Numbered from the stretch's first letter, positions 30,643 through 32,028 are shown. The stretch is 64,000 bases of DNA from Acidobacteriota bacterium (GCA_034211275.1 JAXHTF010000001.1:120590-184589); one strand, 5' to 3'. Notes: generated from the letters alone by a model not told the origin. Translations and numbers: made by a program.

Positions 30643-32028
30643 CTAGCCGGAACGGTGGATGGTGAGATGACCGAGAGCCTTGATCAGCAGCTCCGCCTGA
30701 CCCCAGGTGAGCTCCCGGAAGGCCCAAGGATAGAGCGGCTCGACCCCCAGCAGATGGTGCTGGGCGACGCCGAATTTATTGTAGGTGGGGTGGCCCAGAT
30801 CCGCCGCGTGGGCGATGGGCAGGCGGTTGCGGTCGGCGCCGTTGAAAGCGTCCATGCGGCGCACCAGCTCCTCCCCCTGGGGCCCGGCCAGCTCCTCCGC
30901 CACGGCGGCGCCGACGGCGAAGGCGTCGGTGGCGGTATTCAGGCGCTGGACCAAGGCTTCGGCGACCTCGCCGCGCTCCTCCAGCCACTCCTGCCACGCC
31001 GCCAGCAGCGCCTCGAGGAGCGGCAGGGAGTCCTCGGTGGTGGCGAAGAGCTGGCAGCAGAAGGTGGGGATGATGGACACTCGGGCCCCGACCGGCAGAT
31101 AGCCCCAGGCCTCCAGCAGCTCGGTGAGCTCGGCAAATCCGCTCTGCACCCACTCGTGGTGGATGTAGTACTGGCTCGACGAGCCACCGGCATGCCAGAA
31201 GACCCGCTGGTCGGGGTCGGTGCGATGCTCCCGGGCGGCGTAGGTGAGGAAGTTGAAGAAGTTCTCGAACCATGGGTAGCTGATTTTGCCCAGGGGCTCG
31301 GCGGTGCGGATGCGGTGGGAGACTTTGGCCATGCCGTCGAGGAAAGCTTCCATCAGCTCCTCGGCGGTGCCCTCGAAGACGGTGCCGGACGAGGCGGCAG
31401 TGATGGTCGCCCGGCCACCGGCGCCGTATTCGATGCTGCGGATCTTCTTCGCCACGGCATAGCCCTTCTTGCCGGTGGTGCGAACCCAGCGGTTGAACAG
31501 CAGGTCGAGCTTGCGGTGGCGGAAGAAGTCGTGGATCAGGGAACGGAAAAGCTCCGCCTCGTCGAGCACCTCCTGGGAGCGAATGCGCACTCCGCGGCCG
31601 TTCATCTGCCGGCTGAGGCGCTCCGCCAGGCGATAGTGGGAGGTGATCAAGTCCTCCCCCTGGTGCTGGCCGAAGATCCCGAAGTTGAGGTGGGCGAAGT
31701 ATTTCCGCTGGGCCTTGGCCAGATGCTGATTGACGTGCTGCCCCACCTCCTCCGGCCGCGGCTGCCCCTTGTGGTCGAAGCACGCCTCGACGACGCCGTC
31801 GTCGCCGAGGAGCACCCAGGGGATACAGTTCTCGTCGACGCCGTAGAGGGTGTGGTCGTATTGGCCCAGGTAGGCGTTGCCGGCGAGGGCAAGCCAGCCC
31901 CAGACGTTGGAGGTGTTGTTGCCCACGTGGCAGGTGCGTACCACCGGGCTGGCGAGGCCGGCGACGGTCTCCAGGGTCTCGGCGATCCCGGCATCCATCG
32001 CCGAGGTGAGGCGGGGCTCGGCGCTCAT
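30643..32028 (-). CDS. hypothetical protein, 461 aa, no recognisable family or motif
   Basis: Balanced amino-acid composition (W, Y, F, K, N present), unlike the Gly/Ala/Arg-rich antisense + strand ORF 30655..32175. Convergent with the last megasynthase gene (16 nt apart) and divergent from the ABC exporter. Confidence 0.55.
   Translation of the reverse strand: MSAEPRLTSAMDAGIAETLETVAGLASPVVRTCHVGNNTSNVWGWLALAGNAYLGQYDHTLYGVDENCIPWVLLGDDGVVEACFDHKGQPRPEEVGQHVNQHLAKAQRKYFAHLNFGIFGQHQGEDLITSHYRLAERLSRQMNGRGVRIRSQEVLDEAELFRSLIHDFFRHRKLDLLFNRWVRTTGKKGYAVAKKIRSIEYGAGGRATITAASSGTVFEGTAEELMEAFLDGMAKVSHRIRTAEPLGKISYPWFENFFNFLTYAAREHRTDPDQRVFWHAGGSSSQYYIHHEWVQSGFAELTELLEAWGYLPVGARVSIIPTFCCQLFATTEDSLPLLEALLAAWQEWLEERGEVAEALVQRLNTATDAFAVGAAVAEELAGPQGEELVRRMDAFNGADRNRLPIAHAADLGHPTYNKFGVAQHHLLGVEPLYPWAFRELTWGQAELLIKALGHLTIHRSG

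Follow-up and report, generated by a model that had tools for sequence, protein, structure and literature searches.

Domains resembling aminoacyl-tRNA synthetases (aaRSs) serve several enzymes of secondary metabolism and cofactor synthesis, among them BshC, the CysRS-like Cys:GlcN-Ins ligase MshC, the cyclodipeptide synthases and the SerRS-like amino acid:carrier-protein ligases. In the bacillithiol pathway BshC is the putative cysteine ligase, which would add Cys to GlcN-Mal. Release of a finished chain by a terminal condensation (C) domain is also familiar, from the macrocyclising CT domains of fungal nonribosomal peptide synthetases (NRPSs) to the bacterial terminal or free-standing C domains, such as VibH, that use soluble amines. 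We know of no MshC, cyclodipeptide synthase or amino acid:carrier-protein ligase that has a fixed place beside, or is fused to, a terminal NRPS C domain. Here we describe gene X, which encodes a 461-residue protein in a 64,000-nucleotide stretch of DNA from an Acidobacteriota bacterium (GCA_034211275.1 JAXHTF010000001.1:120590-184589). This whole stretch is called the window, and its positions are counted from its first letter. Gene X lies between the last gene of a combined NRPS and polyketide synthase (PKS) assembly line and a SyrD-like exporter, and it probably helps to finish or release the assembly-line product.

BshC and MshC join the carboxyl group of an amino acid to an amine (PMC5790435). 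For BshC, whose reaction has never been reconstituted and whose activated donor is unknown, the active site is open and may leave room for a partner protein (PMC5790435). Chain release can be catalysed by terminal C domains (PMC10510592), and the glycopeptide X-domain with its P450s sets a precedent for C-type domains that cooperate with partners supplied in trans (PMC10510592). The assembly line in the window resembles the terminal-C release systems in ending with a carrier and a C domain that keeps its catalytic His, and in having no thioesterase (TE). It differs in that no described system has a dedicated aaRS- or BshC-like partner, whereas the pairing reported here recurs in at least 17 loci and includes one fusion. 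No description of an aaRS- or BshC-like partner of condensation domains was found in the open-access full-text literature. The recruitment of aaRS-like catalytic domains to secondary metabolism is a known theme; what appears to be new is the X family itself and its fixed pairing with terminal C domains.

Results

X mostly adjoins the terminal C domain of assembly lines

Contigs encoding X homologues and related loci were gathered, and 20 non-redundant neighbourhoods with usable flanks were annotated from precomputed Pfam calls, tblastn searches with the window domains as queries and additional Pfam scans. X directly abuts, or is fused to, a gene ending in PCP-C in 14 of the 20 loci, often with a gap or overlap of 1-13 nt. 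It lies just upstream of an A-PCP-C gene in two of the others, in the same operon as one at a third locus and in the same cluster as a C-ending NRPS at a fourth, and a PCP-C-ending synthetase shares the cluster with X in at least 17 of the 20. The terminal C domains next to X retain the catalytic His as HHxxxDG or [SD]HxxxDG; in the window the motif is an intact HHLITDG at 29682-29702. In the window, the last megasynthase lacks a TE or R release domain, and as a thioesterase was not found either, the C domain must be the route by which the chain leaves its ACP. The three features expected of a partner of a terminal C domain, namely adjacency or fusion to PCP-C, an intact C domain and no TE in cis, were all found, and the position of X is kept across phyla and across GC contents of 27% to 71%.

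The neighbourhoods fall into two classes, of which class 1 comprises the larger assembly lines. X is convergent on a gene ending in ACP-C in the window and in the L011 locus, both of class 1. In other class 1 loci (L001, L009, L005, L012/L026, L016 and L033) a C-A-PCP-C gene is followed by X in the same direction, the two overlapping by as much as 13 nt or lying up to a few tens of nucleotides apart, and an ADOP/MacB-type permease usually lies directly 3′ of X. L023 has a C-ending gene followed by X, and in L028, where the context is the same, C-A-PCP-C-X is a single 2050-residue polypeptide (P0061) with an ADOP permease and an O-methyltransferase downstream. Class 2 consists of small cassettes in which X follows A-PCP-C (L007, L015, L025 and L032), precedes it (L008 and L021) or lies in the same operon as the A-PCP-C gene (L024, at 27% GC). 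They are accompanied by Ddl-like and RimK-like ATP-grasp ligases and an aminotransferase, with additional PEP-mutase/phosphonate genes in L007. Since these A-PCP-C plus X cassettes have a single carrier domain, whatever the C domain takes as its acceptor cannot be bound to a carrier. Three loci depart from both classes: L020 has a methyltransferase, a flavin halogenase and then X, with a C-ending NRPS about 9 kb upstream; L014 has a GlnA-like gene, X and then the start of an NRPS; and in L004 X has no NRPS within 10 kb.

Homologues of X therefore co-occur with NRPS/PKS clusters in all but one of about 20 neighbourhoods, a check that the first-pass annotation of the window had proposed. That annotation took X for a tailoring enzyme or an immunity protein. 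The link to the cluster is upheld and X is likely an enzyme, but the description is too vague and its immunity half is unlikely: such a role agrees badly with the P0061 fusion, with the absence of sequence similarity to real aaRSs and with the small A-PCP-C cassettes. Because X is tied to the terminal C domain, by adjacency in 14 of 20 loci and by fusion in P0061, a role in the final condensation or release is favoured over generic tailoring.

Three observations concern the company that X keeps. ADOP-family permeases recur beside X clusters and lie downstream of X in L001, L005, L009, L016, L026 and L028. An unannotated protein family of 477-488 residues, here called Y, co-occurs with X in four class 2 cassettes (L007:2956-4389(-), L008:15289-16731(-), L015:6974-8383(+) and L024:8509-9975(+)) and is absent from the window. 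Its copies are 35-54% identical to one another; direct scanning of the L024 copy gave no Pfam match, and none is on record for the L007 and L008 copies. A second NRPS in L026 (15631-21171, - strand) likewise finishes with a terminal C domain and converges on an ABC exporter; no separate X accompanies it, and one X might therefore serve both synthetases.

X has a predicted fold nearest to BshC and class I aaRSs

The predicted structure of X is a Rossmann-like HUP fold whose nearest relatives are BshC and the class I aaRSs, in particular class I LysRS. A fold search, which the first-pass annotation had recommended, was run with the predicted model and returned this match. The model contains the Rossmann core and CP-type insertions of the BshC fold, and its likeness to BshC (PDB 4wbd; PF10079) extends over a Rossmann-like core of class I aaRS type, into which subdomains are inserted, and a C-terminal part made of helices. 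Both proteins belong to small-molecule biosynthetic pathways, and for neither has the reaction been defined biochemically (PMC5790435). BshC is longer by about 80 residues; X is found in NRPS/PKS clusters beside terminal C domains and not with bshA/bshB, and has its main distribution in Acidobacteriota instead of Firmicutes. No bshA/bshB-type glycosyltransferase/deacetylase pair was found in the roughly 20 X neighbourhoods. Searched at E ≤ 10 in Pfam and NCBIfam, X does not match the BshC profile, and the family profiles miss the 4wbd sequence in the PDB.

Secondary structure assignment of the model by DSSP places a strand at residues 29-34 and a helix at 40-49, with H34-x-G36-N37 between them. 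In nucleotidyltransferases and in class I aaRSs such as LysRS (PDB 1irx), HIGH occupies this β1/αA junction, and X has Asn in place of its final His; the correspondence is a positional argument drawn from the model. The C-terminal half is predicted to be helical, as it is in LysRS. The differences from class I aaRSs are that X has no sequence similarity to them, no KMSKS and no recognisable anticodon-binding domain, and that its phyletic distribution is tiny (66 of 1.84 billion representative sequences) and its genomic context is not that of a housekeeping gene. Membership in a tRNA-synt_1 family and the presence of an anticodon-binding domain were not supported by any Pfam, NCBIfam or PDB sequence match. 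No conserved KMSKS-like motif was found in the X alignments; the sole near-invariant Lys, K418 in YNKFG, is not kept in the sister family described below and is therefore not a superfamily-wide equivalent. The features that mark cyclodipeptide synthases, a class-Ic-like fold of about 220-250 residues with a catalytic Ser and a match to PF16715, were not found in X. In contrast to X, MshC, the cyclodipeptide synthases and the amino acid:carrier-protein ligases can be identified from sequence or Pfam or act on defined substrates.

The first-pass annotation had reported none of the classic motifs. There is indeed no GxGxxG and no family recognisable at the sequence level, but the predicted fold is Rossmann-like after all and H-x-G-N is HIGH-like. 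The three peptides that it quoted as Cys/His-rich are all present in X, and the key invariant motif H34-x-G-N falls within them. Conservation in these peptides is confined to H34, G36, N37, P321, Q326 and L327 and does not include the cysteines. A metal-cluster or Cys-rich protein was ruled out because the cysteines vary in the homologue alignment.

X belongs to a small unannotated family with a sister family in Saccharibacteria

A search of 5.8 billion proteins yielded 55 full-length homologues of X that are 39-74% identical to it, all of them labelled hypothetical and none with a Pfam domain. The family is small, with only 66 matches among 1.84 billion representatives searched exhaustively with a HMMER profile. 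The named homologues come mostly from metagenome-assembled genomes (MAGs) of Acidobacteriota/Thermoanaerobaculia, with one from a Kofleriaceae MAG, and the protein identical to X is SX243_00405 of an Acidobacteriota MAG. X had been described as an orphan, which the roughly 60 homologues contradict. The family alignment has 26 invariant columns, many of them polar (R31, H34, N37, H59, D65, D126, R239, E267, H279, Y288 and Q326).

The X sequence alone gave no annotation from Pfam or NCBIfam, neither phmmer nor the family profiles match any PDB sequence, and a combined profile of X and the sister family reached no annotated family in database searches. A lone T2SSF match at E 0.042 was dismissed as noise. 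A confident match to a housekeeping family would have contradicted the first-pass annotation; none was found in Pfam, NCBIfam or the PDB. By these profile searches X appears to found an unannotated family, for which neither Pfam nor NCBIfam has a model.

Two X paralogues, P0003 and P0009 (KDD11_08760 and KDD11_01370), occur in one Acidobacteria MAG and share 73% and 46% identity, respectively, with the X of the window; some genomes thus hold more than one X-containing cluster. The 27% GC locus L024 has an X homologue (40% identity) and a full class 2 cassette, so the family is spread far beyond high-GC Acidobacteriota.

The X profile search also drew proteins of about 385 residues at E ~1e-4. 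These belong to an unannotated sister family of at least 48 proteins from Saccharibacteria/Patescibacteria. When the X and sister alignments were compared with hhalign, 379 columns aligned at E 3.7e-10 with a probability of 96.7%. The motifs R-[ST]-x-H-x-G-N, D-H-T-x-x-G-x-D, E267, H279-x-[SG]-G, P-[ST]...F-A-T and G-x-x-Q are common to both, and H34, G36, N37, D65, E267, H279 and Y288 are invariant in the joint alignment at an overall identity of 16-21%. A β-hairpin at about residues 183-220 of X has no counterpart in the sister family and resembles a CP1-type insertion. Among 37 members of the two families compared with Pfam, none matches PF10079 at E ≤ 1, and by sequence neither they nor the joint profile reach LysRS-I, another tRNA-synt_1-type family or anything else that is annotated.

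Three sister-family loci were examined (L029:7001-8140, L031:7001-8194 and L030:7001-8191). In two of them there is an overlap with an Asp/Glu racemase gene on the downstream side, and an α/β hydrolase comes next; in the third the gene abuts ProRS. These are amino-acid-handling contexts in genomes without NRPSs. In bacteria of the candidate phyla radiation the sister family may serve as an amino-acid ligase, either for housekeeping or for the cell wall.

Gene X is coded on the minus strand and is under purifying selection

An ORF listing of the window gave the 461-codon, ATG-started open reading frame (ORF) of gene X on the minus strand and an overlapping mirror ORF at 30655..32175 on the plus strand. 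The window is about 70% GC, which makes GC content by codon position a strong test of frame. The values for positions 1, 2 and 3 are 0.67, 0.44 and 0.905 in the gene X frame, a pattern shared with the flanking megasynthase (0.76, 0.50 and 0.90) and ABC transporter (0.69, 0.44 and 0.89). The plus-strand mirror ORF gives 0.88, 0.47 and 0.67 and an alternative minus-strand frame 0.77, 0.67 and 0.61, so both were ruled out as the true gene. Codon-position GC settles the minus strand as the coding strand, as the first-pass annotation had called it; codon statistics favouring the plus-strand ORF would have overturned that call and instead support it. Comparison with a 73%-identical orthologue in L011 gave dN/dS = 0.26, and gene X is real and under purifying selection. 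The product has a pI of 5.9 and no hydrophobic segment of transmembrane grade (the maximum 19-residue Kyte-Doolittle window is 1.37), in agreement with its earlier description as cytoplasmic and free of transmembrane helices.

The cluster around gene X in the window

The features of gene X and its neighbours are collected in Table 1. The earlier description of a 16-nt convergent gap to the megasynthase is exact. The exporter scores 482 bits against TIGR01194 (cutoff 286), and an ATG start at 32172 is favoured because the profile alignment begins at residue 35. The cyclic-peptide exporter and the divergent region of about 140 nt, both noted before, are accordingly borne out, the latter as a plausible 143 nt. 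A promoter scan of the flanks of X found no sigma-70-type consensus in the divergent region. Three terminator-like matches were all inside gene X on the wrong strand, and an inverted repeat at 30590-30619 lies within the coding end of the megasynthase. Co-regulation of X with the cluster had been predicted from the shared promoter region; the functional link is supported by the conserved neighbourhood, but the divergent region, with no sigma-70-like promoter detected, gives no basis for it.

Table 1. Features of gene X and its immediate neighbours, in window coordinates
Feature	Position	Strand	Evidence or remarks
Last megasynthase gene, 2294 aa, KS-AT-KR-DH-ACP-C	23742..30626	+	Pfam
ACP (PP-binding) domain feeding the terminal C domain	29031..29219	+	Pfam PF00550, residues 1764-1826; GGDS motif
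Terminal C domain of the last megasynthase	29283..30590	+	Pfam PF00668, E 8e-75, residues 1848-2283
16-nt spacer between the convergent stop codons of megasynthase and X	30627..30642	.	Sequence GTGGCACCAAGGGGCG; megasynthase stop ends at 30626
Gene X, 461 aa, predicted founding member of a BshC/class-I-aaRS-like (HUP fold) family	30643..32028	-	Predicted fold
LPIAHAADLGHPTYNKFGVAQ (403-423), conserved C-terminal loop	30760..30822	-	P404, Y416, N417, K418, G420, Q423
PTFCCQLFAT (321-330), P-[ST]...Q-L-F-A-T strand and turn	31039..31068	-	Alignment conservation; Cys residues variable
E267 ... FWHAGGSSSQYY (277-288), predicted second half of the Rossmann-like core	31165..31230	-	Superfamily-invariant E267, H279, Y288
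β-Hairpin insertion, ~residues 183-220	31369..31482	-	hhalign gap against sister family; DSSP strands 191-202, 206-211, 215-220
DHTLYGVD (58-65), second conserved motif	31834..31857	-	H59, D65 invariant in X; D65 superfamily-wide
PVVRTCHVGNNTSN (28-41), strand β1 and R31-[ST]-x-H34-x-G36-N37 signature	31906..31947	-	H34, G36, N37 invariant in X and sister family
Divergent intergenic region, X/ABC exporter	32029..32171	.	143 nt; 74 nt if the exporter starts at ATG 32103
Cyclic-peptide export ABC transporter, SyrD-like, TIGR01194	32103..33911	+	Profile match; probable start 32172

The first megasynthase gene (2447-13741) contains C, A, PCP, KS and AT domains. The middle one (13822-23745, + strand) has an unusual domain combination, with a sulfotransferase (PF13469), a luciferase-like monooxygenase (PF00296) and an FkbM methyltransferase (PF05050) embedded among its C, A and PCP domains. 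A tRNA-Arg(GCG) called by ARAGORN at 9925-9992 (- strand) lies inside the first NRPS gene; Rfam finds no tRNA there, and the call is most likely a false positive. A truncated copy of an ADOP-family duplicated permease (TIGR03434; MacB_PCD and FtsX) occupies the left edge of the window (8-1546, + strand). Between it and the first NRPS gene is a 279-codon ORF (1548-2387, - strand) with a coding-like GC3 of 0.85 and no Pfam or NCBIfam match. About 2.2 kb at positions 39800-42000 has 51-60% GC compared with about 70% for the genome and separates the cluster core from additional biosynthetic genes, namely a flavin monooxygenase (42002-43162, - strand) and a stand-alone AMP-binding enzyme (43155-45026, - strand). 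None of the ORFs in this segment shows a coding-like GC3, Pfam gave no match for the two longest, and neither an Rfam match nor a tandem repeat was found in it.

Discussion

Our preferred, though tentative, reading is that X is a dedicated partner of the terminal C domain that binds, and perhaps activates, an amino-acid or amine co-substrate for release. The co-substrate would be bound in a putative pocket formed by H34, N37, D65, E267, H279 and Y288, and X may adenylate it with ATP through the HIGH-like H-x-G-N loop. X would then present or deliver it to the C domain on the acceptor side, and the C domain would couple it to the ACP-bound chain and so release the product for export by the neighbouring ABC/ADOP transporters. 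In gene order and in the fusion alike, X stands where the A-PCP of a further module would be; it would most likely select the last building block, and C plus X could in effect be described as a carrier-less terminal module in which X holds the position normally held by A-PCP. It is possible, if rather doubtful, that this arrangement is an unrecognised mode of termination in which a BshC/class-I-aaRS-like enzyme replaces the ANL-type A domain and the PCP, selects and possibly adenylates the last building block and hands it directly to the C acceptor site.

Several points weigh against assigning X to the C domain as its activating partner. No sequence-level link ties X to aaRSs, BshC or another characterised family, and X has no conserved KMSKS-like second motif, which makes its use of ATP hypothetical. 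That the invariant residues come together to form a single pocket is an assumption. Three of the 20 loci (L004, L014 and L020) have no adjacent terminal C domain, X is convergent with the synthase and not co-transcribed with it in the window and L011, and the P0061 fusion is a single metagenomic case that could be a frameshift artefact.

Some of these points suit X as a free-standing BshC/MshC-like ligase that works before or after the assembly line, joining an amino acid to an amine so as to make a building block or acceptor precursor or to decorate the product, without physical cooperation with the C domain. BshC and the class I aaRSs are the closest predicted folds, the class 2 cassettes are rich in other stand-alone ATP-grasp ligases, the window X is transcribed apart from the synthase, and the neighbours in L004, L014 and L020 are GlnA-like, aminotransferase, methyltransferase and halogenase genes with no adjacent C domain. 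We nevertheless consider such a ligase unlikely, although not markedly so: X adjoins the PCP-C end specifically in 14 of 20 loci, often with translational coupling, a C-X fusion exists, and generic tailoring genes are seldom so fixed in position across phyla and from 27% to 71% GC. A tRNA-dependent X would act like a cyclodipeptide synthase, passing the aminoacyl group from aminoacyl-tRNA, possibly through Ser/Thr32 or Tyr288, to the acceptor of the C domain with no use of ATP. The lack of a conserved KMSKS motif would fit, as would the hydroxyl residue conserved at position 32 in both families, the invariant Y288, the helical C-terminal half reminiscent of class I anticodon-binding domains and the one sister-family gene that adjoins ProRS. 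This route is improbable, however, since the protein is acidic (pI 5.9) and the HIGH-like H-x-G-N is kept, whereas cyclodipeptide synthases have lost the HIGH motif. The clusters moreover contain no tRNA or tRNA-related gene, the only tRNA call in the window being the one inside an NRPS gene.

The tight adjacency and the one fusion to a C domain, together with the want of a recognisable second nucleotide-binding motif, could also describe a non-catalytic partner, whether scaffold, chaperone or gate, comparable to the MbtH-like proteins that partner A domains or to P450 recruitment by the glycopeptide X-domain. Seven invariant polar or Gly residues persist across two families at 16-21% identity, and the sister family occurs in NRPS-free Saccharibacteria; this pattern fits an active site and not a docking surface for a C domain, which makes a purely structural role very improbable. 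Clusters for aaRS inhibitors often carry a resistant copy of the aaRS, and X could by that precedent be a self-resistance protein, for instance a decoy of the aaRS that the product targets or a resistant copy of it. The aaRS-like predicted fold and the place beside an exporter, typical of resistance genes, are what such a protein would show. This explanation is the most far-fetched, as X has no sequence similarity to genuine aaRSs and no detectable anticodon-binding domain or KMSKS, occurs in clusters as different as large PKS-NRPS systems, single-module NRPSs and phosphonate/ATP-grasp cassettes, and is fused to an NRPS in P0061.

The chemistry proposed for X is entirely inferred, and the family offers a solid, experimentally tractable lead into what would be an undescribed logic of termination. 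Should the inference be wrong, X would still be a well-supported domain of unknown function, structurally defined by its predicted model, that deserves a family entry. X, as a predicted relative of BshC with a strong genomic context, may provide a handle on the BshC reaction, which has gone unreconstituted for over a decade (PMC5790435). By analogy, termination by C plus X would suggest that BshC depends either on a partner protein or on an activated donor that is bound as a thioester or to a carrier. The homologous Saccharibacteria family linked to an Asp/Glu racemase was uncovered alongside X. If X does serve the terminal C domain as proposed, it would add a new enzyme family to NRPS/PKS enzymology, a genome-mining marker for an unusual C-terminal building block and a compact, possibly portable off-loading unit for engineering. 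It would also account for product release by the TE-less assembly lines ending in PCP-C in uncultivated Acidobacteriota and other phyla.

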